Shown: positions 4,101 to 25,865, counted from the stretch's first letter. The stretch: DNA of 39,886 nucleotides from a candidate division WWE3 bacterium RIFOXYC2_FULL_42_13 (GCA_001773255.1 MEWF01000014.1:9416-49301), one strand, 5' to 3'. Made by a program: numbers and translations. The notes: generated by a model not told the origin, from the sequence alone.

Positions 4101-4835
4101 CAGCTGTATATATTCGTTTTCGGATATTACAGAGTACTGTTCGACACTTTCAATTTTCTTTTGAACTATTTTGAAGTGTTTTTCCTGCTCTTCTATCTTT
4201 TTTTCGTACTGTGTCCTTATTTGCTGAGTCTTCTCCCTGATCTTTCTTTCTTCTTCGGCGCGTTTTATTTCTTCAGGAATCTTAGCAATGTTCTTCAGTT
4301 CAACTTCTACTTCCTGCACTTTTACGTCGGCCTCTTTATTTATCTGAGCTTTAACTTTTTCAAAATCTTTTGTAACCATATCTATGGCCTCTGCTTTTTT
4401 CTTGCCGTCCATTGCTGTAACTATAAATGACGCGAAGTAAACAACAGACTCCACATTTCTCGGTGTAAGATCGAGAAGCAAGGCCATCTTTGACGGAATG
4501 CCTTTGAAGAACCATACGTGGGCTACAGGAGAAGAAAGTTTTATATGCCCCATTCTTTCTCTTCTCACTCTGGAATGTGTTACTTCAACACCGCACTTAT
4601 CGCACAAAACACCCTTGTATCTTATGCCTTTATATTTTCCGCAATAACATTCGTAATTCTTTGATGGACCGAAGATACGCTCATCAAAAAGTCCTTCCCT
4701 TTCCGGCTTGAAAGTTCTGTAGTTTATGGTCTCGGGTTTAGTAACCTCGCCGAATGACCAACTCAGTAGTTCCTGGCTAGATGCCAGATATATTTTTATT
4801 GCGTCAAAATCTTTTAATTGGCTAATGTCTTTCAT
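1167..4835 (-). CDS. rpoC: DNA-directed RNA polymerase subunit beta'
   Basis: 1222 aa. It has the N-terminal Zn-ribbon cysteines ([16 protein letters not shown]), the catalytic [13 protein letters not shown] motif, and bridge-helix/trigger-loop regions. It follows rpoB after 15 nt. Confidence 0.98.
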
Positions 4836-4850
4836 ATTTATATGCGGAAA

Positions 4851-7800
4851 TTATTCTTCCGATTCCGCCTCCTGCTCGGAAATTTCTTCACTGGCTATCT
4901 TTGCGGCCGTTTCCGTGGAAGTATCTACAACTTCCGCTTCCGGCACACTTTCCTCAACTTCTTCAGCCGGACCCGAACCTTCCTCAGAAGAATAGGCTTC
5001 AAGACCCAAACCCAATCCGTTAAGTTTTCTGACAAGTAATTTAAATGTTTCAGGTACGGAAGATTCAGGTATTTCTTTACCCTGAACCATCGCACTGTAA
5101 GCTTGAGTTCTTCCCAACATATCATCCGATTTAATAGTCAAAATTTCCTTGAGTATGTTTGCGGCACCATAAGCTTCGAGAGCCCATACTTCCATTTCTC
5201 CGAATCTTTGTCCGCCGAATTGAGCTTTACCCCCAAGAGGCTGCTGTGTAATCAAAGAGTAAGGACCCGTTGATCTGGCGTGCATTTTCTCTTCTGACAT
5301 ATGTATGAGTTTTAGAATGTATGTATCACCTACGACAATCTCGTTATGGAAATACTCACCGTTCCTGCCGTCAATCAGTTTCATTTTTCCCGTTACAGGA
5401 AGGCCGGCTTTCATCAACTCGGCGTTGATAAGTTCTTCGGGAATTTCCTGTAAGGAAGGAACCTCGTAAGTCTTTCCTAATGTTTTTCCGGCCATGCCGA
5501 GCGAGGCTTCCAAAATTTGGCCGACATTCATACGTTTCAGAACCGCTTCCGAAGAAAATATAATATCGATTGTGGTTCCGTCGGGAAGCATGGGCATGTC
5601 CACAACAGGTACTATCGCTGAAATAACACCTTTGTTACCGTGTCTTCCTGCCAGCTTGTCTCCGATATCTATCTTCTTTTGCTGCGCAACGTACACAGTA
5701 ATCCTCTCGATCGTTCCCGCAGGTAAAGATTCGTTGTCCTTCTTTGTGACCCTTTTTATGCCTATAACAACACCGTGCTCGCCGTGGGGCATGTACAAAG
5801 ACGTGTCCCTGACATCCTTGGCTTTTTCACCGAAAATGGCTCTTAAAAGCCGTTCCTCGGATGTAAGGTCCATTTCCCCTTTGGGGGCGACTTTGCCGAC
5901 GAGAATATCGCTGGATTTAACTTTAGAGCCGACGGCGACTATTCCGTCCTCATCAAGATTTCTCAATGACTCCTCGGAGACGTTGGGGATGTCCCGTGTG
6001 ATTTCTTCGGGTCCTAATTTGGTTTCCTGAACTGAAGTTTGGTAGTCGGAAACGTGAATTGAAGTTAAAACGTCCTCTTTTACCAGCCTGTCCGAAATGA
6101 CAATACCGTCTTCAAACTCAAGACCTTCGTAGATCATATAAGCAACTTTCATATTTGTTCCGATGGAAAGCTCGCCATTGTTAACGGCCGGTCCCTCGAC
6201 AAGTACATCGCCTTCTTTTACTTTTTGACCGGTTTCAACGACAACATACTGATTAAAACAAGTATCGCTGTTGGTCTGCTCGAATTTAGCTGCGGTGTAT
6301 TCTACCTTTGAACCTTTTCCTCCATGGCCGTACTTAACGATTACTTTTCTGGCATCCGCGAATTCAACAACTCCGTCTCCGTCTGCAAGAATAAGGGCAT
6401 TTGTATTTCGGGCAATTTCTCCTTCGATCCCGGTGCCTATTATAGGAGTTTCCGGTCTGATCAAAGGAACCGCCTGGGACATCTGTTGAGTACCCATCAA
6501 GGCTCTTGCGATATCGTTATTTTGCAAAAAAGGAATAAGACCTGCGGCTACACCCACGACCTGTCGTGGAACAACCTCAATATATTCTGCTAAAGCAACG
6601 TCACCGAGGAAAAAGTTGCCGCCCTTTCGGAGAGGAACCTGTTTATCGGTTATAAAACCTTTTGCATCCACAGCTACCGACTGATCCGTGATATGAGCGT
6701 TCTCTTCATCGTAGGCTGCCAGATAAACTATCTCGTCCGTTAGCCTGATATCACCCGAAGGTTTTTTTTCAAGTTTAATGTAAGGGGTTTCCAAAAAACC
6801 GTATTCGTTGACCTTGGCATAAGAGGCAAGGTAGTTGATTAATCCTATATTCGGTCCTTCCGGAGTTCTTACAGGACAAACTCTTCCGAATGAAGAATAG
6901 TGAACGTCTCTTACCGAGAAGCTTGCTCTTTCTTTTGTAAGACCTCCCGGTCCCAAAACCGAAAGTCTTCTCAAATGATCTAATGCCGTTAAAGGATTTT
7001 GCTGATCGTGAAGTTGGGACAATTGACCGGTAGCAAAAAAGCTGTGAACAGCAGCTGCTATGGCTCTGGGTGATATAAGAACAGAAGGTTCAGGAAGTGT
7101 TTCACGCGGAGACAAGGACATTCTCTCTTTAATATTCTTTTCCATTCTCAAAAAGCCTATTCTCATTTGCCACTGAAGAAGTTCTCCCACGCTTTTGACG
7201 CGCCTGTTACCCAAAAAATCTACATCGTCGGGAACACCGACACCATTATTCAACTCAATTATTCTCGAAACTATCTTAATAAGATCCTCCAAAGTAAGCA
7301 GTCTGTGATCGGCATCGTTGGGAATATTTAATCCCAGAGATTTGTTTAATTTAAATCTCCCGACGTGGCCCATGCTGAATCTTCTTTTGTTGAAGAACAT
7401 GGCAGCTACAAGAGCCTTGGCGTTCTCCAACACCAGAGGTTCTCCGGGTCTCATTTTTCTATAGATCTCGATGCACGATTCTTCAAAGCTGGAGGCCGGG
7501 TCTTTTGCCAATGTTTCGTTTATGTAGTTTATCTCAGGATTTGACTCTACATTTTCAAATGTTTTTCGTATGTCCTCGTCCTCTTCAAGTCCGAAAACTC
7601 TCAAAAGGGTAGTAACGGCTATTTTTCTCTTCCTGTCTATCCTCACACTCAAAACGCCATTTCTGGATGTCTCGAACTCAAGCCAGACACCACTCTTAGG
7701 CAGTATTTTTGCACCTGCCAAGAATTGTCCCGTAACGGGAGAAGGTTCTCCCGTAAAGAGAACTCCTTCTGCTCTGATCAGCTGATTAACTATGGTTCTT

Positions 7801-8159
7801 TCAACGCCGCTTATTACAAAGGTTCCTCTTTGAGTCATCAAAGGAAGGTCGCCCATGTATATATTCGATACTTTCTTCTTTTTTGTTAAAGGATCCTCTA
7901 TTGTAGCCTTGACATACCAGGGGGCGTCGAAAGTTCTACCGGTCCTTTTAGCTTCAGGTATGGAAATATTCTCCTTCTCTATAGAGGGATCGGAGAGGGT
8001 AACAACCCACCCTCTACCCGAGCTGTCCTCGACGGTACCTAGTTCTTCGAGAATCTCCTTAAGACCCTCGTTCATGAGCCAGTTGTATGAATTTAATTGT
8101 ATATCTGCTAAGTTTGGAAGATTTAAAGCTATTTTTCTTTTAGAAAAAGTTTCTCTCAT
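4851..8159 (-). CDS. rpoB: DNA-directed RNA polymerase subunit beta (with acidic C-terminal tail)
   Basis: 1102 aa with conserved blocks GRHGNKGV, MNVGQILE and TGPYSLITQQPLGGKAQFGGQRFGEMEVWALEAYGA. The last ~45 aa are an E/S-rich tail. Confidence 0.98.
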   Translation of the reverse strand: MRETFSKRKIALNLPNLADIQLNSYNWLMNEGLKEILEELGTVEDSSGRGWVVTLSDPSIEKENISIPEAKRTGRTFDAPWYVKATIEDPLTKKKKVSNIYMGDLPLMTQRGTFVISGVERTIVNQLIRAEGVLFTGEPSPVTGQFLAGAKILPKSGVWLEFETSRNGVLSVRIDRKRKIAVTTLLRVFGLEEDEDIRKTFENVESNPEINYINETLAKDPASSFEESCIEIYRKMRPGEPLVLENAKALVAAMFFNKRRFSMGHVGRFKLNKSLGLNIPNDADHRLLTLEDLIKIVSRIIELNNGVGVPDDVDFLGNRRVKSVGELLQWQMRIGFLRMEKNIKERMSLSPRETLPEPSVLISPRAIAAAVHSFFATGQLSQLHDQQNPLTALDHLRRLSVLGPGGLTKERASFSVRDVHYSSFGRVCPVRTPEGPNIGLINYLASYAKVNEYGFLETPYIKLEKKPSGDIRLTDEIVYLAAYDEENAHITDQSVAVDAKGFITDKQVPLRKGGNFFLGDVALAEYIEVVPRQVVGVAAGLIPFLQNNDIARALMGTQQMSQAVPLIRPETPIIGTGIEGEIARNTNALILADGDGVVEFADARKVIVKYGHGGKGSKVEYTAAKFEQTNSDTCFNQYVVVETGQKVKEGDVLVEGPAVNNGELSIGTNMKVAYMIYEGLEFEDGIVISDRLVKEDVLTSIHVSDYQTSVQETKLGPEEITRDIPNVSEESLRNLDEDGIVAVGSKVKSSDILVGKVAPKGEMDLTSEERLLRAIFGEKAKDVRDTSLYMPHGEHGVVIGIKRVTKKDNESLPAGTIERITVYVAQQKKIDIGDKLAGRHGNKGVISAIVPVVDMPMLPDGTTIDIIFSSEAVLKRMNVGQILEASLGMAGKTLGKTYEVPSLQEIPEELINAELMKAGLPVTGKMKLIDGRNGEYFHNEIVVGDTYILKLIHMSEEKMHARSTGPYSLITQQPLGGKAQFGGQRFGEMEVWALEAYGAANILKEILTIKSDDMLGRTQAYSAMVQGKEIPESSVPETFKLLVRKLNGLGLGLEAYSSEEGSGPAEEVEESVPEAEVVDTSTETAAKIASEEISEQEAESEE

Positions 8160-8379: not shown

Positions 8380-8928
8380 CTAATTTACGAACCCTACCTT
8401 TCCCACCGGCCAAAAGCGGAAAACAACCCTTCCTACAATATCCGAAGCCTTAACCATGCCGAAAACGCGGGAATCCAGAGAATTGCGCCTGTTGTCCCCC
8501 ATCACAACATAATAACCGTCCTTTATCTCCACGGATCTGCCCTCCTGCAAAAACTCATTCCCGCCTACAGTACAACCGCCGGAACCCAAATACTCCTCGT
8601 CCAGAGTAAATTGGTGGCCGTCGCGATATATGTAAATTTTACACTCAAATACTTTAATTATGTCACCCGGAAGCCCGATGACCCTTTTTATGAAGTGTCT
8701 GGAGTCTTCGGTGGGAGGTACGAGTACGACCACCTCGCCTCTTTCGTAACCCCTGAAGTTTTTGGATATTTTATCTACCAAAATTCTTTCCCCTGTTCCG
8801 AAATTCGGTTCCATACTTGCCCCCCAGACAACCTCGACGGACCCTATCGTAATGTACAGCACAAGAACAACCAGAAGGGAGGTTAAAAATGATTCTGCAA
8901 TTTCATAAAAATGTCTCTTTATATTCAT
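8380..8928 (-). CDS. lepB: Signal peptidase I (S26 family)
   Basis: Nucleophile box GASMEPNF, the conserved Lys region (IKRVIGLPGD) and the GDNRRNSLDSR box, with one N-terminal TM helix. I prefer the ATG at 8928 (MNIKRHF...). The track's ATG at 8979 would overlap the divergent gene's 5' end by 18 nt. Confidence 0.85.
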   Translation of the reverse strand: MNIKRHFYEIAESFLTSLLVVLVLYITIGSVEVVWGASMEPNFGTGERILVDKISKNFRGYERGEVVVLVPPTEDSRHFIKRVIGLPGDIIKVFECKIYIYRDGHQFTLDEEYLGSGGCTVGGNEFLQEGRSVEIKDGYYVVMGDNRRNSLDSRVFGMVKASDIVGRVVFRFWPVGKVGFVN

Positions 8929-8947
8929 ATCGGTTTTATGGTATTTA

Positions 8948-8953
8948 TATAAT
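8948..8953 (+). promoter_or_regulatory. -10 hexamer TATAAT, 8 nt upstream of the ATG at 8962 (possible leaderless transcript)
   Basis: TATAAT at 8948..8953, then atctgact, then ATG. No SD is present. The whole divergent spacer is only 33 nt. Confidence 0.35.
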
Positions 8954-8961
8954 ATCTGACT

Positions 8962-10560
8962 ATGGACAATAAATCTCATAAAGAAATTACATCACTTAAG
9001 GATTTTTTTCAAATTATTAAAGCAAACCGGGTCACGTTCCTTTTACTGTTTCTTTTAGTGATGATAGCTTACGGGAATCTTTCGAGGGGGGAGTTTCTGA
9101 ACATGGACGATGAAAAGGGTATTTTGTACAACCCGAACATCGGAAATATCGGGAAGATGTTCGGAACGGGGTTCTTATACAACATGGAATTAACGCTCAT
9201 CCACGCTGTTTTCGGTTTAAAACCCGGCGCTTACCACATGTTCTCGGTGCTTTCTCATTATATTAACGTGGTGCTCTTATTTCTCTTTGCCTACGCGGTA
9301 TTCGACAAGCAAAAAGCACTGATAGCAAGCCTCTTGTTTGCGGTCCACCCCCTTGCAAGCGAAGCTGTAGGCTGGATATCGGCGATGCACTATCTGCACA
9401 TTGTTTTTTTCACTTTAATCACCATGATATTCCACTACCTGTTCCGGATAACTGCGCAAAAAAAGTATTACGTTGCGGAAATTGTCATTTTTATTATCGC
9501 ACTGGCAATACTAAGGAACGCCTGGGTGCTCACATTACCGTTTTCTCTGCTGGTCTTTGATCAACTCATAATGAACAAAAAGATCAATTTCAGATCAATG
9601 CTCTGGATACTTCCGTATTTTATCTTTGCCGCCCTTCATGCTTACATAAACTTGTTCGGGGGATTTGCGACTAGAGTCACGGATCTTAAGCAGGACTATT
9701 ATTACAACCCGTATACCGCTACTCCCCTACTAAACCGCACACCATATATAGTATTCACCATAGCAAAACTTCTGATATCCCCCCTGGCGTTAACTGTCTA
9801 TCACGAGGGAATTTATATCAGTATTGTTTCCTACATAGCAATGATTGCGGTAACGATCGCCGTAGTAATACTAACTATAAAATTATACAAAAAAGCCAGT
9901 TACATGGCGGGATTCATCCTGCTTATTTTTATATCAACGCTGCCCTCGTTCAGCCCGGTAGCTATTGCGTGGTTTATCGCCGAAAGATACCTCTATCTTT
10001 CAACCATGGCATTTAGTTTGATACTTGCCTTCCTCATTCCTTATCTGGAAAAGTATACAGGCATAAAGAAATTTACTACTTACGCGGTTGCGCTTTTGTT
10101 GGCTTTTTATACGATCAGAACCGCAGTCCGAACACAGGATCTCTTGAACACGAGCAATCTATGGCATGCAACCCAAAAAGTGTCTCCTTACAGTTTCAGG
10201 GTTTATAACAATCTCGGAGACGTTTACGCAAGAGAGCAAAAATACGATCTGGCTGTTACCAACTTTAAAAAATCCATCGAGCTTGATCCGACTTACGCCG
10301 ATGCGGTTCATAATCTGGGGTATGTATATTTGCAGATGGGGGATTACGATAACGCGTGGAAATATCTTGAACAATCGTATCAGATGAATCCGAGATTATA
10401 CGGGGCGACCTACAAAATGGGCGTAATTGCCTTCTACAAGAAGGATTATGAAACCGCAAAAACTTTATGGCTAAAAACCCTGGAACTTAACCCCGGTGAT
10501 GCTAACGCCATTAATGCCCTTAAAGCACTCGAGCAGGCCGTCGCTGCAGAAGCGAAATAA
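8962..10560 (+). CDS. Polytopic GT-C-type (PMT/TMTC-like) putative glycosyltransferase with C-terminal TPR repeats
   Basis: 532 aa with about 10-11 hydrophobic helices. An acidic DDE lies in the first loop after TM1 (FLNMDDEKG), as in GT-C enzymes. The C-terminal ~130 aa form about 4 TPR units (e.g. NNLGDVYAREQKYDLAVTNFKKSIELDP, HNLGYVYLQMGDYDNAWKYLEQSYQMNP). Confidence 0.65.
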   Translation: MDNKSHKEITSLKDFFQIIKANRVTFLLLFLLVMIAYGNLSRGEFLNMDDEKGILYNPNIGNIGKMFGTGFLYNMELTLIHAVFGLKPGAYHMFSVLSHYINVVLLFLFAYAVFDKQKALIASLLFAVHPLASEAVGWISAMHYLHIVFFTLITMIFHYLFRITAQKKYYVAEIVIFIIALAILRNAWVLTLPFSLLVFDQLIMNKKINFRSMLWILPYFIFAALHAYINLFGGFATRVTDLKQDYYYNPYTATPLLNRTPYIVFTIAKLLISPLALTVYHEGIYISIVSYIAMIAVTIAVVILTIKLYKKASYMAGFILLIFISTLPSFSPVAIAWFIAERYLYLSTMAFSLILAFLIPYLEKYTGIKKFTTYAVALLLAFYTIRTAVRTQDLLNTSNLWHATQKVSPYSFRVYNNLGDVYAREQKYDLAVTNFKKSIELDPTYADAVHNLGYVYLQMGDYDNAWKYLEQSYQMNPRLYGATYKMGVIAFYKKDYETAKTLWLKTLELNPGDANAINALKALEQAVAAEAK

Positions 10561-15681: not shown

Positions 15682-16965
15682 TCAAATCATTTTCTTTTTG
15701 GGCAGGATTTTGTCGAAATTTACGTACTGTCTTAACACTTCGGGAACGGTAACACTGCCGTCCGCGTTCTGGTAATTTTCCAGAACTGCCGCTAAAAGCC
15801 TCGGTGTAGCAGCCACTGTGTTGTTGAGGGTATACACATATTTAAGCTCCCCTGTGGAATCTCTATATTTAATATTCAGGCGTCTGGACTGAAAATCCCT
15901 AAAGTACGAGTCCGAGTGGGTCTCCCTATACTTACTCTGAGACGGGAACCAAGTCTCCAGATCATACTTCTTAACCTGTCCCGCACCCATATCCCCGGTA
16001 CACATTAAAAGTACCCTATAGGGAAGGTTTAGACCTTTTAGTATGTTTTCGGCATGACTCAGCATTTTTTCATGCCATTCTCTTGTTATCTCTTCGTTAG
16101 CAGTTGTAAGTACCACCTGCTCAACTTTGTTGAATTGGTGAAGTCTGAAAATACCCTTGGTGTCTTTGCCGTAAGCGCCGATTTCTTTTCTAAAGCATGG
16201 GCTCAATCCAAACAGTCTCACGGGAAGTTCGGATTCGTTCAGAATCTCGCCGGAGTAATAGGAGGTGAGAGATACTTCGGCCGTTCCGATTAAAGCTTTG
16301 TCATCTTCCAACCTGTAGTGATCGTCTTCTCCCCACGGGAAATACCCTGTTCCGGTGAAAAATTCGGGTTTTACTATCCAGGGAACACTCAACATTGTGT
16401 AGCCTTCGCCCAGCATCATGTCACACGCGTATCTTAAAATGGCTTGCTCAAGCTGAGCGCCTTCATTTTTTAAAAAATACCCTCTGAACCCACCGATCTT
16501 TGCACCCCGTTCAAGATCCATGATATCGAGCGATTGTCCCAGATCCACATGATCTTTAGGCTTAAAGTCGGGGTCTATGATATTTCCTTCCTCCCGCACG
16601 ACTTTGTTGCCGCTCTCGTCCTGCCCTACCGGAACATCCTCAGCAGGAACACTAGGCACCCAAAGCATCAGTTGGTCGAAAATTATCTTCATCTCAGTAA
16701 GTTCGTGTTCATACTTGCCGAGCTCTTCTTTGACCGCCGAAGCCTCATTTATAAGTTGAGATCTATCCTGAGACGCTACTTTCGAGATACTCTCGGAAAG
16801 CTTGTTTCTTAGGGCTCTATGAGTTTCCACCTTTTTCAGAAGATCCAAGTACCCGTCGTGGGTCTCAATTAACTTGTCAATGGAAACGGTCTTAGTCAGC
16901 TGTTTATCCTCGACGGCTTTTTTGACCTTGTCTGTGTTGTTTTTTATATAATTTATGTCCAGCAT
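15682..16965 (-). CDS. serS: Seryl-tRNA synthetase
   Basis: 427 aa with an N-terminal coiled-coil arm and a class II core (FRKEIGAYGKDTKGIFRLHQFNKVE, ETHSDSYFRDFQSRRL, NNTVAATPR). Confidence 0.96.
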   Translation of the reverse strand: MLDINYIKNNTDKVKKAVEDKQLTKTVSIDKLIETHDGYLDLLKKVETHRALRNKLSESISKVASQDRSQLINEASAVKEELGKYEHELTEMKIIFDQLMLWVPSVPAEDVPVGQDESGNKVVREEGNIIDPDFKPKDHVDLGQSLDIMDLERGAKIGGFRGYFLKNEGAQLEQAILRYACDMMLGEGYTMLSVPWIVKPEFFTGTGYFPWGEDDHYRLEDDKALIGTAEVSLTSYYSGEILNESELPVRLFGLSPCFRKEIGAYGKDTKGIFRLHQFNKVEQVVLTTANEEITREWHEKMLSHAENILKGLNLPYRVLLMCTGDMGAGQVKKYDLETWFPSQSKYRETHSDSYFRDFQSRRLNIKYRDSTGELKYVYTLNNTVAATPRLLAAVLENYQNADGSVTVPEVLRQYVNFDKILPKKKMI

Positions 16966-17006
16966 TGAAAAATCCCTTTTTTGTTGATTTTTACATATAC
17001 AATGGT

Positions 17007-17035
17007 AATATAAATTTCGCGGCTGGAAAAGTCAA
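17007..17035 (-). promoter_or_regulatory. Putative serS promoter (TTGACT-17-TATATT)
   Basis: The minus strand has TTGACT (17035..17030), a 17-nt spacer, then TATATT (17012..17007). This gives a ~35-nt leader with AAGGGA before the ATG at 16965. Confidence 0.45.
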
Positions 17036-17077
17036 TGTAATGCCCAAAACGCCCTTCGGTGGCTCCGAAGAGAGTTA

Positions 17078-17106
17078 TTGACCTATGGTAACCGTTCTGT
17101 TACAAT
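17078..17106 (+). promoter_or_regulatory. Putative infA / ribosomal-protein operon promoter (TTGACC-17-TACAAT)
   Basis: TTGACC at 17078..17083, exactly 17 nt of spacer, then TACAAT at 17101..17106, which is 29 nt upstream of the infA ATG. It is back-to-back with the serS promoter. Confidence 0.5.
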
Positions 17107-17135
17107 CAAGCGCGTTTGCTGAGTCAGAAAGCTAA

Positions 17136-17354
17136 ATGAGCACAAAAGAAGTAATTACAAAAGACGGAAAAATAACTGAGACCCATATGGGAGGGATGTT
17201 CAAGATAGAATTTGAAGACGAGACCAACGCTTTGGCCGTCATATCGGGAAAAATGAGGAAGGCCCACATTAGGGTTTTACCTGGGGACAAGGTTAGAATA
17301 GAATTTTCCCCCCACGATCTGACAAGAGGCAGGATCATTTACAGGCTTAAGTAA
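17136..17354 (+). CDS. infA: Translation initiation factor IF-1
   Basis: 72-aa S1-like OB protein (ISGKMRKAHIRVLPGDKVRIEFSPHDLTRGRIIYR). Confidence 0.96.
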   Translation: MSTKEVITKDGKITETHMGGMFKIEFEDETNALAVISGKMRKAHIRVLPGDKVRIEFSPHDLTRGRIIYRLK

Positions 17355-17379
17355 CTCAACCGGAAAGAATTTTTGAAAT

Positions 17380-17496
17380 ATGAAAGTCAGATCATCTGTA
17401 AAACCAATCTGCAAAGATTGCAAAATTATTATAAGGAACAGGACAGTTAGGGTTATTTGTAAAAGAAACCCTAAACACAAGCAAAGACAGGGTTAA
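17380..17496 (+). CDS. rpmJ: 50S ribosomal protein L36
   Basis: Not in the ORF track because it is too short. The ATG at 17380 gives [38 protein letters not shown] plus TAA, in the canonical position between infA and rpsM. Confidence 0.93.
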
Positions 17497-17498
17497 TT

Positions 17499-17885
17499 AT
17501 GCCGAGAATCAAGGGTGTAGACATACCGGGAGAAAAAAGAATAGAAGCATCTTTAAGGTATATCTACGGTATTGGTCCAACCATATCTAAGAAAGTACTT
17601 GAGAAATCGGGTATAAATCCCGACACCAGGGCTAAAAATCTTACCGACGAGGATGTTGCAAAAATAAACGCCGCAATAGCCTCCATGGAACTTCATGTCG
17701 AGGGAGAATTGAAAAGATTAGTTAACCAGAACATCAGACGTCTGCAGGAAGTAAAATCTTACAGAGGGCTTAGGCATCTGGCGGGACTTCCCGTAAGGGG
17801 ACAACGCACAAGAACTAATTCCCGTACGAGAAAAGGTAAGAGAAAGACTGTAGGCGGGCAGAAAAAGAAACTAGCTAAGAAGTAA
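17499..17885 (+). CDS. rpsM: 30S ribosomal protein S13
   Basis: 128 aa ([10 protein letters not shown]...YIYGIGP...[21 protein letters not shown]). Confidence 0.97.
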
Positions 17886-17900
17886 TTTATCCGGATTTAT

Positions 17901-18290
17901 ATGGCACAAAAAACAACAAAAGGCAAAAAGAAAGAAAAAATAATAACACCGAGCGGTAGAGTATATATAACCGCAGGGATGAACAATACTATTATTACGG
18001 TGACCGATTCCGAAGGTAACACTTTGTTCACGGCCAGCTCAGGCAGTGCCGGATTCAAAGGATCAAGAAAATCAACTCCCTACGCATCTACAAAAGCAGC
18101 TGAGATAGCCGGCAACGCCGCCTCAAAAGCAGGCGTCAGGGACGTATCGGTCTACCTAAAAGGAGCCGGATTAGGCAGAATCTCATCTATTAAAGCTCTT
18201 AAAACAGTCGGTCTCAATGTAGTGTCAATTTCAGACCTCACCCCGATCCCTCACAACGGATGCAGGCCTGAGAAAAAGAGGAGAGTTTAA
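17901..18290 (+). CDS. rpsK: 30S ribosomal protein S11
   Basis: 129 aa (NNTIITVTDSEGN...GFKGSRKSTPYA...PIPHNGCRPEKKRRV). Confidence 0.97.
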   Translation: MAQKTTKGKKKEKIITPSGRVYITAGMNNTIITVTDSEGNTLFTASSGSAGFKGSRKSTPYASTKAAEIAGNAASKAGVRDVSVYLKGAGLGRISSIKALKTVGLNVVSISDLTPIPHNGCRPEKKRRV

Positions 18291-18295
18291 CGCTT

Positions 18296-18898
18296 ATGGC
18301 AAGATATACAGGACCAAAGTGTAGGTTATGCAGAAGAGAGGGTGTAAAACTGTACTTAAAAGGTTCAAGATGCGAGTCCGATAAGTGCGCGATAGCAAAA
18401 AAGGCCCAAGCTCCGGGACAACACGGAACCAGAAGAAAATCCGTCTCAGAATACGGCAAACAGCTGAGAGAAAAGCAAAAAGCCAAGAGAATTTACGGAA
18501 TTCTTGAGAAACAGTTCAAGAACTACGTTAACAAGGCTTTATCCTCAAAAGGGGTATCGGGCGAAATTTTAATGCAGTTACTGGAATCAAGACTGGATAA
18601 CATGGTCTACAGAAGCGGATTCGCGGTTTCACGGGCACAGGCCAGACAATTCATAAGAAGAGGTTTATTTAATGTCAATGACCGGGAAGTAAATATCCCG
18701 TCAAGAACACTTAAGATCGGGGACGTAATAAAACCAATAAGCTTCGAAAAAATACATTTGAGAGAGGGCATTGTACTACCGGAGTGGCTTGAGGCGAATA
18801 TTAAAGAAAGGTATGTAAAATATTCGAGACTTCCTATGCCGGAAGACACTCAGGAAAAAGTAGATGTGCAGGCAATTATAGAATTTTATTCCAGGTAA
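18296..18898 (+). CDS. rpsD: 30S ribosomal protein S4
   Basis: 200 aa (MARYTGPKCRLCRREG...YGKQLREKQK) with a C-terminal S4 RNA-binding domain. AGGAG lies upstream. Confidence 0.97.
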   Translation: MARYTGPKCRLCRREGVKLYLKGSRCESDKCAIAKKAQAPGQHGTRRKSVSEYGKQLREKQKAKRIYGILEKQFKNYVNKALSSKGVSGEILMQLLESRLDNMVYRSGFAVSRAQARQFIRRGLFNVNDREVNIPSRTLKIGDVIKPISFEKIHLREGIVLPEWLEANIKERYVKYSRLPMPEDTQEKVDVQAIIEFYSR

Positions 18899-20766: not shown

Positions 20767-21201
20767 ATGGCAAAAGAAAAAGCACAGGAAAAGACAAAAA
20801 TAGAACCCAAATTCTTCGCAGGCACCGGCCGCAGAAAAACAGCGGTCGCCAGGGTATTTATGTGGGACGAAAAAGGGGATATTACGGTAAACGGCATGGA
20901 TATAAATGATTACTTTCCTTCAGAAAAAGAGCAGATAGCTTGGACAAGACCTTTTCACATACTCGGAGTCTCCCATCCGAAAGCCAAATTCAAGGCCAGC
21001 ATAAAAGTAGCGGGTTCCGGTAAATCGTCCCAGCTGGGAGCAGTAGCGCACGGAATTTCCGTTGCTCTCGCGCTAATGAACGAAGAATACTCCGTAATGC
21101 TACATAAACAGGGACTTATGACCAGAGACTCAAGAATGGTCGAAAGAAAGAAACCTAACCTGCACAAAGCAAGAAAAGCTTCGCAATATTCAAAGCGTTA
21201 A
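20767..21201 (+). CDS. rpsI: 30S ribosomal protein S9
   Basis: 144 aa (GTGRRKTAVARVFM...GGGKSSQ-like GSGKSSQLGAVAHGISVAL...C-terminal YSKR). Confidence 0.96.
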   Translation: MAKEKAQEKTKIEPKFFAGTGRRKTAVARVFMWDEKGDITVNGMDINDYFPSEKEQIAWTRPFHILGVSHPKAKFKASIKVAGSGKSSQLGAVAHGISVALALMNEEYSVMLHKQGLMTRDSRMVERKKPNLHKARKASQYSKR

Positions 21202-21473
21202 TTTTCGGCTAAAACTTTTTCCAGACTTTCTACAAAGGTTTTTATGGAGATTATTTGGTCCCGCAGCTTACACTTTTCTATTTTGTTCATGTAGAGTATC
21301 GGAGTTGAAAAAATTTCCGAAATCGCGTTGATTATTTTTTCCGGCGGTACTGCACGTCCGGTCTCGTAAGCTGAAACCGTCTTCCCTGAAACACCTATCT
21401 TTTTTCCAAACCTATATTGGGATAGTTTGAACGAACTGCGTATATCTCTTATCTTTACACCAATTTCGGACAT
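21198..21473 (-). CDS. XRE-family helix-turn-helix transcriptional regulator
   Basis: 91 aa with an N-terminal HTH (IRDIRSSFKLSQYRFGKKIGVSGKTVSAYETGRAVPP) and a short helical C-terminus. It is divergent from radC and shares a palindromic intergenic site with it. Confidence 0.85.
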   Translation of the reverse strand: MSEIGVKIRDIRSSFKLSQYRFGKKIGVSGKTVSAYETGRAVPPEKIINAISEIFSTPILYMNKIEKCKLRDQIISIKTFVESLEKVLAEN

Positions 21474-21488
21474 ATATAGTGTGAGTAG

Positions 21489-21528
21489 AATTTAACATAT
21501 TGTAATGTACATTGCAATAACCTAGATT
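21489..21528. promoter_or_regulatory. Overlapping divergent promoters (xre and radC) built around a 20-bp near-perfect palindrome (21499..21518)
   Basis: The palindrome is ATTGTAATGT|ACATTGCAAT, with 9 of 10 arm positions complementary. On the plus strand, TTGTAA (21500..05), 17 nt, TAGATT (21523..28), then 7 nt to the radC ATG. On the minus strand, TTGCAA (21517..12), 17 nt, TAAATT (21494..89), then 15 nt to the xre ATG. The two -35 hexamers are the two palindrome arms. Confidence 0.5.
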
Positions 21529-21535
21529 ATATTCT

Positions 21536-22225
21536 ATGAATATTCTCTCATTACCTGAAGACGACAGACCCCGCGAGAAACTTTTGAGTTCGGGCCCGGG
21601 TACAATGTCGGACGCCGAACTGATTGCCATAATCCTTTCCAGCGGTGGAAAAGGACAATCTGTTCTTGAGCTATCCCAAAGTCTTATAAAGGAAGCGGAA
21701 ACGCTGACCGAACTTTTAAACTTCCCTATTCAAAAATTGATCGAACACAAAAACCTGGGCGAGGCCAAGGCGGTTAAACTTGCAGCGGTAAAAGAAATGG
21801 CAGCAAGGTACAACAACAAAAGTAAAGATATCGTCAGGATATCGGCACCCGGGGACGCGTACGACTATATCAAATCAAGCCTTTCAGGAAAAGAAACCGA
21901 ACATTTATATTTAATCACCCTTAACGCAAGAAATACCGTTATCAATAAAAATCTGATCTCGGTAGGTACCGTCAACGAAACTTTGATACACCCGAGAGAA
22001 ATAATAAAAGTAGCTGTAATGAACAACGCTGTTTCAATAATTTTGGTCCATAACCATCCGTCAGGAGAACCTTATCCGAGCTCTGAAGATATAAAAGTAA
22101 CCCAAAGGCTCGAAAGTGCCTGCAAGATTGTAGGAATCGGTTTTACCGATCACCTTATCGTGTGTGACAGCTCTTTTTCCAGCATGAGAGCACAAAATTT
22201 ATTGGGAGGGGGTGAAAAAAATTGA
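21536..22225 (+). CDS. radC: RadC-like JAB/MPN-domain protein
   Basis: 229 aa with an N-terminal HhH-like region (RPREKLLSSGPGTMSDAELIAIIL) and the C-terminal JAMM motif HNHPSGEPYPSSEDIKVT. Confidence 0.93.
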   Translation: MNILSLPEDDRPREKLLSSGPGTMSDAELIAIILSSGGKGQSVLELSQSLIKEAETLTELLNFPIQKLIEHKNLGEAKAVKLAAVKEMAARYNNKSKDIVRISAPGDAYDYIKSSLSGKETEHLYLITLNARNTVINKNLISVGTVNETLIHPREIIKVAVMNNAVSIILVHNHPSGEPYPSSEDIKVTQRLESACKIVGIGFTDHLIVCDSSFSSMRAQNLLGGGEKN

Positions 22226-22815
22226 AATTAAACAAAAAAAGTTTGCCACTTTACTTGGCAGGACTCGGTATAGTAATCAGTTTGGTTGCGGGAGTAACCT
22301 TCGCAGCTTTCACCGACAAAGCAAAGGTAATGGGCTCAACATTTTCTGTAGGAAGTGCCGACCTTAGATTTTTAGAGGACATGCCCAAAGGTACAGATCC
22401 TACGAACCTTGTCGATGAGATTCCCGGTCCGACATTCGGAAATATCGGACAAACCTGGTCAGCTGACTACCCTGTTAAACTGATCAACAACGGAACTTCG
22501 GGCATTACGATAGCATCGCGCGCATACTACGAAACCGTAAACGACCCCGCCGAATTAAGATCCGACATTAACGTAGAAATTTTCGAGTGGAACGATGCCA
22601 ACGTCAACGGTGTACTGGATCCAGGAGAAGTAGGCATGAGCCTGGGCAAGAAAACAATATTAAAATGGAAAACCGAGGGTTTGGGGGTGGGACAAATTAA
22701 CCCGGGACAGGTTCGGGCCTTAGTGCTTAGGTTCTCCACGGAAAATTTAAGCAGCACAAAACAGGGCAAATCCGCCTTGTTCGATTTTGAGTTTGAATCC
22801 GCACAGATGTATTAG
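22222..22815 (+). CDS. TasA/camelysin-family secreted protein with a SipW-type signal peptide
   Basis: 197 aa with a TTG start preceded by GGGAGGGGGTGA. The N-terminus KKSLPLYLAGLGIVISLVAGVTFAAFTDKA matches the SipW-dependent signal class (B. subtilis TasA has ...GGGTWAAFND). STFSVGSADL follows, compared with ATFASGTLDL in TasA. The C-terminus SALFDFEFESAQ compares with SIKLQFSFEATQ. Confidence 0.85.
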   Translation: MKLNKKSLPLYLAGLGIVISLVAGVTFAAFTDKAKVMGSTFSVGSADLRFLEDMPKGTDPTNLVDEIPGPTFGNIGQTWSADYPVKLINNGTSGITIASRAYYETVNDPAELRSDINVEIFEWNDANVNGVLDPGEVGMSLGKKTILKWKTEGLGVGQINPGQVRALVLRFSTENLSSTKQGKSALFDFEFESAQMY

Positions 22816-22880
22816 TTGATACAAGCGGGTTCGGAGGTAACATCACGGACAGGTACTACTTAAGCATACTTATATTTTTA

Positions 22881-23285
22881 TTGGTGGGAACAGCCAGATT
22901 AGCCGGAGTTTCACTCTTTTACGTTGTCACGGGTTCCATGAAACCCGCCGCCGATAAGGGAGACGTGGTCATAACTGTACCTGTCCGCAAAATAAAAAAC
23001 GGAGATATAATCTCTTCCAAGCAAAACGGGGTTGTTACAACACACCGTGTCGTAGAAATCCGGAGATCCCCTGCCGGGGTATATTTTGAAACAAAAGGGG
23101 ACAACAACGAAAATGAAGATCCTTTTCCGGTCTCGGAAAGGGAAATATTAGGAAAGGTGGTCTTTATTGTTCCCTCCGGCCGAATATTCAACGAGAATTA
23201 TATTCCGGTTTTATATTGGCTTCTGGGGTATACATTCGGTTTATTCATTTACGAGATCCGTGTACAAAAGGCACCCCAAGTCTGA
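22881..23285 (+). CDS. sipW: SipW-type (archaeal/ER-type, S26B) signal peptidase; the true start is probably upstream of the TTG in the track
   Basis: Catalytic boxes TGSMKP, TTHRVVE and KGDNNENED, plus a C-terminal TM helix. The frame stays open back to 22797 and encodes the missing N-terminal anchor (DRYYLSILIFLL) without any ATG, GTG or TTG; see findings. Confidence 0.85.
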   Translation: MVGTARLAGVSLFYVVTGSMKPAADKGDVVITVPVRKIKNGDIISSKQNGVVTTHRVVEIRRSPAGVYFETKGDNNENEDPFPVSEREILGKVVFIVPSGRIFNENYIPVLYWLLGYTFGLFIYEIRVQKAPQV

Positions 23286-23297
23286 TATTCTTATGTT

Positions 23298-25865
23298 ATG
23301 AAGTCTCTGCCCAGACTACCTCACGAATTTATAATATGGTGGTTCCTGAAAGCTCCGCGCAGGATACTTAAAATATCTTCCCGCCTAATCACGCTTACTA
23401 ACAGCCAGATTTCTTTCACTACAAACATCAGAATATTATTTGTGCCCCTCTTCGGTGACTATACTCTGGTCGGAAGATTTATAGGGTTTTTTATAAGGGT
23501 TGTGTGGACAGTGTTAGGTCTGGTGTTTTTCTTAATTCTCTTACCTGCAAGTGCCCTTTTTCCGGTCGCGTGGTACCTAGCTCCGGCGTTCTTGTATAAA
23601 TTCGCAGGCCCTGCCCATGCTCTAGCTTATGTTTTGGCAGTTTATCTTTTGTACTTACTGGGAAACAGGGATACCCCCAGAATCAGGGTGAACAAGAACA
23701 CTAAAGAAAACTTTCAAGCCAGTTCCAGAAAAAACGTGCTGACAGCCCTGGAGAGATTGGATTCGGAGCAAAGTTCCGGTATTAAGTGGCTCTTCGGTCT
23801 CCCCCAAGTCGAAAAAATATTCAGACGCTCGGAAATAAATAAGGATCTCCTCTTCGATAAACTAAGATCAGCACCCTCCATACAAATTGCGACGCTCGGA
23901 CAGGCAGCCTTCGCAGACTCCCTAAGGTTTAAGTCCAAATATATTGAGGTGGAACATCTCCTGCTCGCCCTGCTTAATAATATACCGAAGATCGATATCA
24001 TACTTTCCTCGCTTAACTCATCCATAAAAAGTGTCGAGGGAAGTATCGAATGGGAAAACGACAAAAGAAATGAAAAAGATAAAATCTTCCTCTGGCAGGA
24101 TGACTATGAACTTATGTTTACAGGAGGATTCGGAAAGGGAATGCTGGGGAGGGTAACACCTAATCTCGACGCCGTTTCACGCGATTACACCAAAGAAATA
24201 GCTTTGGGAAGGTATAAAAAAATCCTCGGACGCGAAACCGATATTAAGACTATCGCGCAGATCCTGAGCGGCTCCAAAGAAAATGTCTTAATTATCGGCG
24301 AACCGGGAAGCGGAAAAACTACGCTGGTAAGGGGCATTGCACAGCGGATTATGGAGGGAAACGAATACAGGTCTCTCAGCAACCACAGGCTAGTCGGTTT
24401 GGACGTCGGGGGTCTCATCTCAGGCGCAACATCGCCGGGAAAAATCGCCGAAAACCTTAAAAAAGTTATGGATGAGGTAAGAGGCTCGGGAGATATTATT
24501 CTGTTCATCGATGAGATACACAACCTCGTAGCAGGCGCTGGGGATACTGACGCAGAAACATCAAAAATCTACACAATGCTCGAGCCCCATCTTGCAAATG
24601 ACAAAATAAAATTTATCGGAGCCACAACCGTTTCCAATTACAGAAAGTATATCGAACCGAATGGAGCGTTCGCCCGTCTTTTTCATTTAGTCCAAATAGA
24701 CGAGCTTCCTAAAGACACTACGATAAAAATACTTGAGGCCAAGGCGGACAAGTTGGAAAACAAGAACAACATGTTGGTAACATACCCCGCTCTGGTCAAG
24801 ACCGTGGAATTATCGGAAAAATTGATGCACGAACGTGTCCTTCCCGATAAAGCTATAGATATTTTGAACAGAACTTCCACAAAAGTAGGGGGCGGTTCCG
24901 GGATGTTAACATCTTCCGACATTGCAGCCGAGATAGCGGAAATGACCAAGATCCCCGTCGAAACCGTGACCCAAGACGAAGCCCAAAAACTGCTCTCCAT
25001 AGAGGAAACGATGAAAACGACGGTAATCGGACAGGATGAGGCTGTAAGACAGATATCCACGGCTCTCAGGCGTGCCCGTGCGGGGATACGCGATGAGAAT
25101 AAACCCATTGCCAGCTTTTTATTTGTAGGAACAACCGGTATTGGAAAAACCCAAACCGCAAAAGCACTGGCCAAACATTATTTCGGCAACGAGATCAATA
25201 TGATCAGGCTGGACATGAGCGAATACCAGCAGGTGGACAGCATCAACAGATTGTTGGGAGATGTAAATGGGAACAGTAAAGGTTTACTGACCGAAATGGT
25301 GCGCACAAAACCCTTCGCGTTAATACTTCTCGATGAGATCGAAAAAGCGCATCCGAACATTCTTCTCACCTTTTTGCAGGTTCTTGACGAAGGAAAACTT
25401 ACCGATAACTCGGGGATGGAAATTGATTTCACTAACACGATAATAATTGCTACCAGCAATGTCGGAACAAAATCCATACAACAGGTTTTTGCAGAACACG
25501 GAACTTTGGAAAAAATGAGAGAACGGGCACTGGCGGATGTCCGGGAAAAATTTGCCCCGGAATTTTTAAACAGATTCTCGGGAATAATCGTTTTCAACCC
25601 TCTTACGGAGCAGAACGTAAGAGATATAACTTTACTTATGCTCGATAAGGTCCGGGGGCTCACCGCGGAAAAAGGTATCAGTGTCAGATTTAAACAGGAA
25701 CTGGTCGACGTACTTTCAAAAAGAGGGTATTCCCCCGAATGGGGAGCCAGGCCGTTGGCGCGCCTTATTGAGGATACCGTAGAAACGTATATAGCCACCA
25801 AAATGCTTAAAAAAGAGATCAACCCGGGTGACCAAATAATGCTCGGGACAGAAGCAGTGGATTGA
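23298..25865 (+). CDS. Clp/Hsp100-type double-AAA+ ATPase (ClpA-like layout) with an N-terminal hydrophobic membrane module
   Basis: 855 aa. Residues ~55-125 form 2-3 hydrophobic helices ([57 protein letters not shown]). A single Clp_N-like repeat follows ([11 protein letters not shown]). D1 has GEPGSGKTT and ILFIDEIH. D2 has [27 protein letters not shown] and [11 protein letters not shown]. There is no long coiled-coil M-domain. Confidence 0.85.

Follow-up and report, generated by a model that had tools for sequence, protein, structure and literature searches.

A TasA-like secreted protein and a membrane-anchored Hsp100-like ATPase in a WWE3 gene string: probably neighbouring separate units rather than a fibre-assembly module

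A stretch of 39,886 nt from RIFOXYC2_FULL_42_13, a member of WWE3 (Patescibacteria), carries a string of genes for an XRE-family regulator, a RadC family protein, a secreted protein of the TasA/camelysin superfamily (TasA-like protein), a SipW-type signal peptidase, and a membrane-anchored, Hsp100-like double AAA+ ATPase (TM-Clp). The whole stretch is referred to here as the window, and all coordinates are window positions. We favour, with a probability of about 0.7, the reading that this string consists of three functionally separate units packed side by side in a compact genome and not of a dedicated fibre-assembly module. A preliminary description of this DNA had made the Hsp100-type ATPase part of a fibre module. 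TM-Clp occurs regardless of tasA and sipW, and therefore a fibre motor module is not supported. This was the outcome of a comparison of gene neighbourhoods across relatives, which had been set beforehand as the test of that proposal, and the attractive 'fibre plus motor' model is removed as unsupported.

Open reading frame (ORF) calls reproduced the five genes of the preliminary description with their coordinates and spacing: RadC and the TasA-like gene overlap by 4 nt, and gaps of 65 nt and 12 nt separate the TasA-like gene from SipW and SipW from Clp. The family assignments hold as well (HTH_3, RadC NF000642, the TIGR04088 leader, the TIGR02228 peptidase, and a double AAA+ Clp). The string does not end at 25865, as had been thought, since prfB follows on the same strand 28 nt on. 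The features are as follows.

21198..21473, minus strand. XRE-family helix-turn-helix (HTH) regulator, 91 aa, divergent from RadC; PF01381 HTH_3, 33.7 bits (cut-off 23).
21498..21519, no strand assigned. Operator-like palindrome TATTGTAATGTACATTGCAATA, 22 bp; 11+11, with 10 of 11 arm positions complementary.
21536..22225, plus strand. RadC family protein, 229 aa, with UPF0758 N-terminal and JAB domains; NF000642, 230.5 bits (cut-off 180).
22222..22815, plus strand. TasA/camelysin-superfamily protein, predicted to be secreted, 197 aa; TIGR04088, 22.4 bits (cut-off 19).
22594..22629, plus strand. EF-hand-like 12-residue loop DANVNGVLDPGE, residues 125-136 of the TasA-like protein; putative Ca2+ site.
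22881..23285, plus strand. SipW-type (archaeal/endoplasmic reticulum (ER)-type) signal peptidase I, 134 aa from TTG 22881; TIGR02228, 69 bits (cut-off 51.85).
23298..25865, plus strand. Membrane-anchored Hsp100-like double AAA+ ATPase (TM-Clp), 855 aa; AAA, AAA_lid_9, AAA_2, and ClpB_D2-small domains.
25894..26901, plus strand. prfB (peptide chain release factor 2); PCRF and RF-1 domains.

Distribution and anatomy of TM-Clp

Twenty species-level loci came from a scan in which each species was represented by one genome and the query was a profile of distant N-termini of TM-Clp; they lie in WWE3-labelled, Beckwithbacteria, Chisholmbacteria (Microgenomatia-type), and unclassified Patescibacteria metagenome-assembled genomes (MAGs). 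Their flanks were checked for tasA and sipW by blastp, custom hidden Markov models, and the leader motif. Neither gene was found in the fetched flanks of 18 of the 20 loci, and a TasA-like gene stood directly upstream of TM-Clp in one (L023). The downstream side is far more constant: of the 17 loci whose sequence extends downstream, 16 have prfB directly after TM-Clp, and then come a small ORF, ftsE, and ftsX. The gene upstream of TM-Clp varies, being AP_endonuc_2 or DUF3307 by Pfam match and SecA, cyclophilin, or Mur ligase by sequence inspection. TM-Clp is a lineage-wide standard gene of the sampled MAGs, and its constant partner is prfB-ftsEX.

The surroundings of the TasA-like gene were obtained from exact-protein look-ups and comprise ten WWE3 loci with an orthologous gene (the window, L001, L002/3, L004, L023, and L025-L029). 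The closest relatives of the TasA-like protein carry WWE3 names. The order rpsI-XRE-RadC-TasA-like-(x)-Clp-prfB, where x is a slot of variable content, is kept in nine of the ten loci, the L001 contig stopping inside Clp. L023 is without XRE, RadC, and prfB, and TasA-like-Clp is retained there. The slot is occupied by SipW in five loci (the window, L001, L004, L025, and L026). SipW is absent from the other five: the slot is empty in L002/3, L023, and L028, consists of a 750-nt gap with no credible ORF in L027, and is taken in L029 by a 261-aa gene on the opposite strand between the TasA-like gene and Clp. No second secreted or anchor protein was found in any of the ten loci. When the window is compared with L025, its closest relative, identity amounts to 60% for the TasA-like protein, 50% for SipW, 73% for Clp, and 73-89% for the other genes. 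The TasA-like protein and SipW are the least conserved members of the string, which fits a separate, faster-evolving surface cassette. Across the WWE3 loci, TasA-like proteins are 44-99% identical. The Clps of these loci are 45-73% identical to the window Clp, versus 36-39% for other TM-Clps.

A TasA-like gene paired with SipW is a known kind of cassette, and such cassettes also occur with no Clp nearby. The cassette at L005 (8-2126) encodes a TasA-like protein of PF12389, a SipW of 219 aa, and a secreted protein of 217 aa that ends in an LPATG sortase-type anchor signal. Cassettes of this type, with a TasA-like protein, SipW, and a third protein of ~206 aa, were found in three further contexts (L030-L034), namely a Dojkabacteria genome and two others. 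No Clp-type ATPase lies within 8 kb of the cassette in these three contexts outside L005.

The anatomy of TM-Clp is that of a class I Hsp100 protein with an altered front end. Pfam matches are to PF00004, PF17871, PF07724, and PF10431, and the protein is laid out as a membrane module (~10-121), a Clp_N-like repeat (~209-227), a first AAA+ ring D1 (~300-560), and a second ring D2 (~570-850). The hydrophobic N-terminus reported in the preliminary description was recovered: Kyte-Doolittle hydropathy over 19 residues is at least 1.6 at centres 66-89 and 112. Clp_N is represented by one partial repeat at residues 209-227, which scores 20.4 bits against a cut-off of 20.7. Exhaustive HMMER searching of 1.84 billion representatives with the N-terminal 300 residues gave 83 clusters at 50% identity, of which ~30 are full-length proteins of 780-880 aa. 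The family is visible only in this way, as a word-indexed search with the Clp N-terminus gave a single homolog.

TM-Clp was compared with solved structures of ClpB, ClpC, and ClpA. Its D1 pore loop reads TSP where ClpB (1qvr) has KYR, and in D2 a 4-residue deletion removes the GYVG of ClpB. The canonical pore-loop tyrosine is absent in both rings across 32 family members of various lineages, and GYVG of D2 is deleted or altered in all of them. There is no counterpart to the M-domain (ClpB 1qvr residues 393-520), and a 6-residue gap stands where ClpC has the FAGFG motif of the ClpP loop. Walker A and B are intact in the window TM-Clp and are kept in the 32 family members, save for a few in which Walker B of D1 is degenerate. 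The protein falls far short of every equivalog cut-off to which it was compared (ClpB 545 vs 1232, ClpA 485 vs 993, ClpV 453 vs 885). Since TM-Clp keeps its Walker motifs and is without the tyrosines that a threading unfoldase should have in its pore loops, the label 'unfoldase' given to it earlier is not justified. From its sequence, TM-Clp is probably a membrane-proximal remodelling ATPase of Hsp100 descent and not a classic threading unfoldase. It would work at the cytoplasmic side of the membrane, fixed upstream of prfB-ftsE-ftsX and independently of the TasA-like protein, and together with prfB it would form the third of the three units.

The TM-Clp family is the most unusual object here. 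It joins a membrane anchor to two AAA+ rings of the Clp type, is fixed beside prfB-ftsEX, and has so far been seen only in Patescibacteria MAGs. A literature search for membrane-anchored Hsp100/Clp proteins in the candidate phyla radiation (CPR) or Patescibacteria found nothing relevant. In this uncultivated phylum, it represents an Hsp100 whose probable lack of substrate threading can be put to the test.

Residues ~10-100 of TM-Clp (23298-23600) hold a W-W-x...LF-x-P-L-F-G-D-Y-x-x-x-G-R motif followed by hydrophobic helices. The first ~100 residues are also found as stand-alone membrane proteins of 110-155 aa that belong to no Pfam family (P0107-P0134). This segment, stand-alone or fused, may serve as a mobile module for membrane targeting or for interaction. 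Some MAGs with TM-Clp-prfB-ftsEX synteny (L012, L019, L022, and L005) carry the labels 'Pseudomonadales' or 'Saccharibacteria', and one protein identical to P0135 is labelled 'Nitrososphaeria archaeon'; these odd taxon names on Patescibacteria-type records are probably mislabels.

The TasA-like protein and its signal peptidase

The protein encoded at 22222-22815 begins with a signal peptide of 28 residues (22222-22305), for which cleavage is predicted between TFA and AFTD, the position being placed by analogy with TasA. The residues around this site, A28, A29, F30, and D32, are invariant or nearly so in 25 homologs. What follows is a mature jelly-roll domain of 169 aa (22306-22812). Two models of the superfamily stay below their cut-offs: Pfam PF12389 (Peptidase_M73) scores 15.0 bits, below the threshold of 22.5, and covers residues 13-49 (the leader) only, and the NF046066 TasA model reaches 14 bits (cut-off 450). 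A 25-sequence family profile compared by hhalign with the L005 protein, which itself exceeds the PF12389 threshold (28.2 bits, above 22.5), gave a probability of 95% with E=3.3e-8 over 174 columns. PF12389 homologs in Patescibacteria were already known (PMC9245690).

The structural comparison was made with an AlphaFold2 model of the mature domain (pLDDT 88.8, with residues 1-8 below 50). In Foldseek, the top match was 7ueg_A, the Pyrobaculum bundling pilin (E=4.6e-4, probability 0.99, TMq 0.36), and the TasA fibre 8aur_A (E=1.2e-3) gave the best TM-score, 0.52, with unrelated beta-sandwiches similar in score. Most of the best-scoring neighbours are donor-strand filament subunits, namely 7ueg, 8aur, the Sulfolobus 0406 thread 7pnb, CS20, and Fim pilins. 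The leader has to be removed for this result: the full-length model gave weak generic matches only, and the mature domain alone brought TasA and the archaeal bundling pili (ABP) to the top. The mature N-terminus, AFTD...STFSVGSADL, resembles the N-terminal segment of TasA, AFND...TFASGTLDL, and its low pLDDT is as expected of a free donor strand in such a model. Taken together, the profile matches and the predicted fold support the assignment of the gene product as a TasA-superfamily jelly-roll protein that is probably exported. The earlier claim that a TasA-like protein has an adjacent cognate SipW in this genome stands, on TIGR04088, hhalign, and fold matches.

A second property of the mature domain is an EF-hand-like loop, DANVNGVLDPGE. 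Its motif, D-x-[DN]-x-[DNS]-G-x-[ILVM]-x-x-x-[ED], is kept in 19 of the 25 family members, and D125 and E136 are invariant in the family alignment. A sequence search of the PDB with the TasA-like profile found nothing significant; among its weak matches were Ca-binding proteins over residues 118-151. The loop is a putative Ca2+ site. Camelysin-like Zn-metallopeptidase activity was considered and rejected, because the mature protein contains neither His nor Cys.

The adjacent peptidase matches NF046067 SipW (56.9 bits) in addition to TIGR02228, and an alignment with homologs matches its catalytic motifs GSMKP (Ser), THRV (His), and KGDNN (Asp). When it is started at TTG 22881, most of the N-terminal anchor is absent, with only ~10 hydrophobic residues ahead of the catalytic Ser. 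The frame is open upstream to 22818 (63 nt), and the missing transmembrane anchor is encoded there. The only Shine-Dalgarno sequence in this part, GGAGG at 22833-22837, lies 4 nt ahead of an in-frame ATC at 22842, and a start at this codon would yield an N-terminus like those of homologs. This suggests either that ATC 22842 is used as a non-canonical start codon or that the enzyme has a shortened N-terminus. A separate S26 peptidase of the LepB type is encoded at 8380-8979.

It is reasoned that these two genes constitute the second unit. The TasA-like protein would leave the cytoplasm through Sec, and its signal peptide would be cut between TFA and AFTD, here by the adjacent SipW-type peptidase. 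Cleavage would free the 169-aa jelly-roll, which has an EF-hand-like loop and a floppy strand at its N-terminus and is without His or Cys. The mature protein is most likely located on the cell surface. Like TasA and the archaeal bundling pili, it may polymerise there through donor-strand exchange that needs no ATP. Across the WWE3 loci examined, a member of the TasA superfamily that carries an EF-hand-like loop is conserved; it may be a component of a surface fibre or an adhesin of WWE3 cells.

Regulator, RadC and the surrounding gene string

The first unit is formed by XRE and RadC. The 3' end of the XRE gene overlaps the end of rpsI, and the gene occupies the same position in nine of the ten WWE3 loci. 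RadC passes the housekeeping equivalog model NF000642 and also matches PF04002 (142 bits) and PF20582 (84 bits). The 62-nt spacer between the two genes contains the palindrome TATTGTAATGTACATTGCAATA, ~17 nt upstream of the RadC start codon. The palindrome is made up of two ATTGYAAT boxes, 12 bp apart. By eye, the same two-box arrangement recurs in six of the eight other WWE3 XRE-RadC spacers (L002, L004, L025, L026, L027, and L029) and is not seen in those of L001 and L028. The recurrence speaks for an operator, local to the XRE/RadC promoters, to which the XRE protein would bind. An XRE repressor and a housekeeping-type RadC would then be expressed divergently from the spacer, with the boxes probably acting as an autoregulatory operator. 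The preliminary description had gone further and placed the whole unit under this palindrome. A conserved operator-like element between XRE and RadC is supported. Control over the whole string is unlikely, because the string runs on into the essential prfB and because TM-Clp-prfB is found in lineages without XRE.

ORF calls and domain scans show that the setting of the string is a housekeeping stretch of a WWE3 chromosome. From the start of the window to ~17 kb the minus strand carries rpsG, rpsL, two large ORFs, lepB, and later secA and serS; the two large ORFs (1167-4835 and 4851-8159, minus strand) we take, from size and position alone, to be rpoC and rpoB. On the plus strand, three ORFs at 17499-18898 are S13, S11, and S4 by synteny with annotated homologous loci, and are followed by rpoA, rplQ, rplM, rpsI, [XRE on the minus strand], RadC, TasA-like, SipW, Clp, and prfB. 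Beyond prfB, the minus strand carries ftsK, RNase J, and more housekeeping genes. The block from XRE to Clp, which the preliminary description had called a non-housekeeping island, has a GC content of 0.41-0.455, the same as its flanks. No tRNA was found in the window, an Rfam scan of the window gave no RNA family, and integrase, tRNA, and repeats were not found at the five-gene string. Scans for promoters and terminators did not rise above shuffled sequence.

Several observations were made on the neighbouring genes. In the window, prfB is a single 335-aa ORF without a programmed +1 frameshift, and the homolog at L009 (9597-10584) is made of two overlapping ORFs, which fits a classical frameshift site or an assembly error. 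Between prfB and ftsK, the minus strand encodes an 88-aa ORF (26903-27169) that ends in a hydrophobic helix and matches no Pfam family; ORFs of 77-98 aa have the same position and strand in L002, L025, L026, and L028. A 357-aa protein with AAA and Lon_lid and without a Lon protease domain is encoded at 31890-33873 (minus strand) and overlaps a 305-aa ORF with no Pfam match; the pair may be a split or degenerate Lon-like system. At ~16000-17500, GC skew and AT skew switch sign where gene orientation turns from minus to plus, and the cumulative GC-skew minimum lies near 16-17 kb. The switch may reflect gene-strand bias or a replication-related change.

Alternative explanations and comparison with known systems

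Several points weigh against three separate units. TM-Clp is the next same-strand gene after the TasA-like gene in all ten WWE3 loci, including L023, in which both outer flanks are different, and given this constancy some selection for the adjacency is possible. In the window, the genes are closely spaced (gaps of 65 nt and 12 nt beside the 4-nt overlap), and no convincing terminator was seen; the gap between SipW and Clp is too short to hold one, and co-transcription of these two genes in this genome is likely, yet not informative. L005 provides a second TasA-like/SipW cassette near TM-Clp: a non-orthologous PF12389 protein and SipW lie 1.4 kb upstream of TM-Clp, with AP_endonuc_2 between. 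The pattern used in the scan excludes the core WWE3 Clp subtype, so that the 20 loci represent relatives outside the core group, and flanks were covered to at most 7 kb, less on short contigs, so that tasA or sipW could lie elsewhere in those genomes. The adjacency, the tight spacing, and L005, together with the conserved operator-like element upstream of RadC, could be explained by a module restricted to WWE3, in which TM-Clp was recruited as an accessory of the TasA-like protein and RadC-TasA-like-SipW-Clp is one operon under XRE. TM-Clp might in that case hold the pre-protein or hand it to Sec/SipW, or clear jammed or uncleaved pre-protein. If true, such coupling would be the first link of a TasA-type subunit to an AAA+ ATPase; as the preliminary description had stated, a TasA-Hsp100 system is not known to have been described, and none appears in the TasA or CPR-pilus literature examined.

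We nevertheless consider such a module very improbable. TM-Clp is equally conserved in the 18 of 20 loci with neither tasA nor sipW in the fetched flanks, and its fixed partner is prfB-ftsEX. SipW is gone from half of the WWE3 loci, and the opposite-strand gene of L029 and the 750-nt gap of L027 interrupt the supposed operon. The L005-type cassette stands without Clp in three other contexts. Co-occurrence of the TasA-like protein, SipW, and TM-Clp beyond inherited synteny, on which the original proposal depended, was accordingly not found (18 of 20 loci; three Clp-free cassettes). The adjacency in all ten WWE3 loci counts as approximately one inherited event, because the region is syntenic overall and all ten Clps belong to the closest subclade of the window Clp; the identities of 45-73% within this subclade versus 36-39% outside it fit a single inheritance. 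The loss of both pore-loop tyrosines in 32 family members speaks against substrate threading. In addition, assembly by donor-strand exchange is described for TasA and archaeal ABP filaments, and for these and for Pam filaments a dedicated motor is not reported. Models of donor-strand filaments, including the Pam pili of CPR bacteria, describe donor-strand assembly and propose no motor, and for the Pam pili the authors conclude that specialised trans-envelope machinery is unnecessary (bioRxiv 10.64898/2026.03.03.709456). A subunit predicted to be exported by Sec (secA and lepB are in the window), filaments for which assembly outside the cell is described, and an ATPase without threading loops all argue against the need for a cytoplasmic motor. 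There is likewise only a slim chance, in our estimate, for the broader proposal that TM-Clp was co-opted in WWE3 to work with the TasA-like protein (e.g., with its N-module at the Sec/SipW site). Separately from this, its family could be an undescribed, Patescibacteria-specific class of non-threading membrane Hsp100 tied to prfB-ftsEX.

The nature of the TasA-like protein itself is more evenly balanced. Instead of being a fibre subunit, it could be a monomeric or wall-associated Ca2+-binding surface protein, such as an adhesin or an envelope structural protein, that has only the SipW-type leader and the jelly-roll fold in common with TasA; the three-unit explanation would otherwise be unchanged. 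The sub-threshold PF12389 match confined to the leader, the modest Foldseek TM-scores (0.36-0.52) with unrelated beta-sandwiches comparable, the conserved EF-hand-like loop, and the lack of an adjacent TapA-like or AbpB-like nucleator or anchor gene all agree with this possibility. It is opposed by the top structural neighbours of the mature model, which are mostly donor-strand filament subunits, and by a mature N-terminus that is TasA-like and predicted to be disordered, as for a free donor strand. We regard a non-fibre protein as somewhat the less likely of the two, at not quite even odds.

Mobile elements often carry XRE and RadC/JAB genes, defence systems often include AAA+ ATPases, and a divergent XRE gene is typical of mobile modules. 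The five genes could on these grounds be a mobile or defence-type island, and XRE does match the RmrA/HTH models of PADLOC at the level of the HTH, as does D2 of Clp the DolB and PDC-M37B AAA models. These are matches to generic domains, so that the region does not correspond to a known defence system, and PADLOC gave none for RadC, the TasA-like protein, or SipW. The genes occupy the same chromosomal site, from rpsI to prfB, in nine of the ten WWE3 genomes, their GC content equals that of the flanks, RadC fits the housekeeping equivalog model, and integrase, tRNA, and repeats were not found. The island reading was rejected on the absence of a GC anomaly and the generic nature of the PADLOC matches (HTH and AAA only), and we give it almost no weight.

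When the three units are compared with described systems, the TasA-like/SipW pair comes closest to the Bacillus subtilis tapA-sipW-tasA and B. cereus sipW-tasA-calY operons. In both, a jelly-roll protein is secreted (in WWE3 by prediction) by way of a SipW-dependent leader (A-A-F-x-D), and its gene adjoins that of a dedicated archaeal/ER-type peptidase; in both, too, a LepB-type peptidase is kept separately elsewhere in the genome. Unlike tapA-sipW-tasA, the WWE3 locus is without a TapA-like accessory or anchor gene, as already stated in the preliminary description. The gene order also differs, with the TasA-like gene first and then sipW, and SipW appears to be dispensable at the locus, as it is missing in five of the ten orthologous loci. 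In contrast to Bacillus TasA, the WWE3 protein is shorter (169 aa when mature), fails the PF12389 threshold, and has the EF-hand-like loop. Finally, the Bacillus operon is a regulated biofilm operon, whereas the WWE3 cassette is embedded in a housekeeping gene string.

Among filament subunits, the archaeal AbpA of Pyrobaculum calidifontis (7UEG) ranks first in Foldseek with the mature model. Both proteins are small, beta-rich, and Sec-exported (in the WWE3 case by prediction), with a free N-terminal strand; the TM-score between them is low (0.36), and polymerisation of the WWE3 protein is putative. Homologs of AbpB, of the PamC/D chaperone, and of anchor proteins were not found adjacent to the WWE3 TasA-like gene. 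The Pam pilins of CPR bacteria, which are two-domain immunoglobulin-like proteins with PapD-like chaperones, belong to a family different from that of the WWE3 protein (bioRxiv 10.64898/2026.03.03.709456).

TM-Clp shares with the class I Hsp100/Clp proteins (ClpB, ClpA, ClpC, and ClpV) two AAA+ modules, Walker A/B motifs, AAA_lid_9, and ClpB_D2-small. It is collinear with ClpA over residues 302-849, and its D2 is ClpB-like (E ~1e-127 to the ClpB structure 1qvr). Unlike these proteins, it has a membrane module in place of most of Clp_N, and it is without the M-domain of ClpB and ClpC, the ClpP-binding loop of ClpA and ClpC, and the aromatic pore-loop residues. In FtsH and Msp1/ATAD1, too, hydrophobic helices at the N-terminus keep an AAA+ ring at a membrane, and Torsins lack aromatic pore-loop residues. 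The likeness of TM-Clp to these proteins is an analogy of architecture, with no sequence relationship beyond the AAA+ fold. TM-Clp differs in its double Clp-type ring, in having no protease domain, and in being a bacterial protein so far seen only in Patescibacteria.

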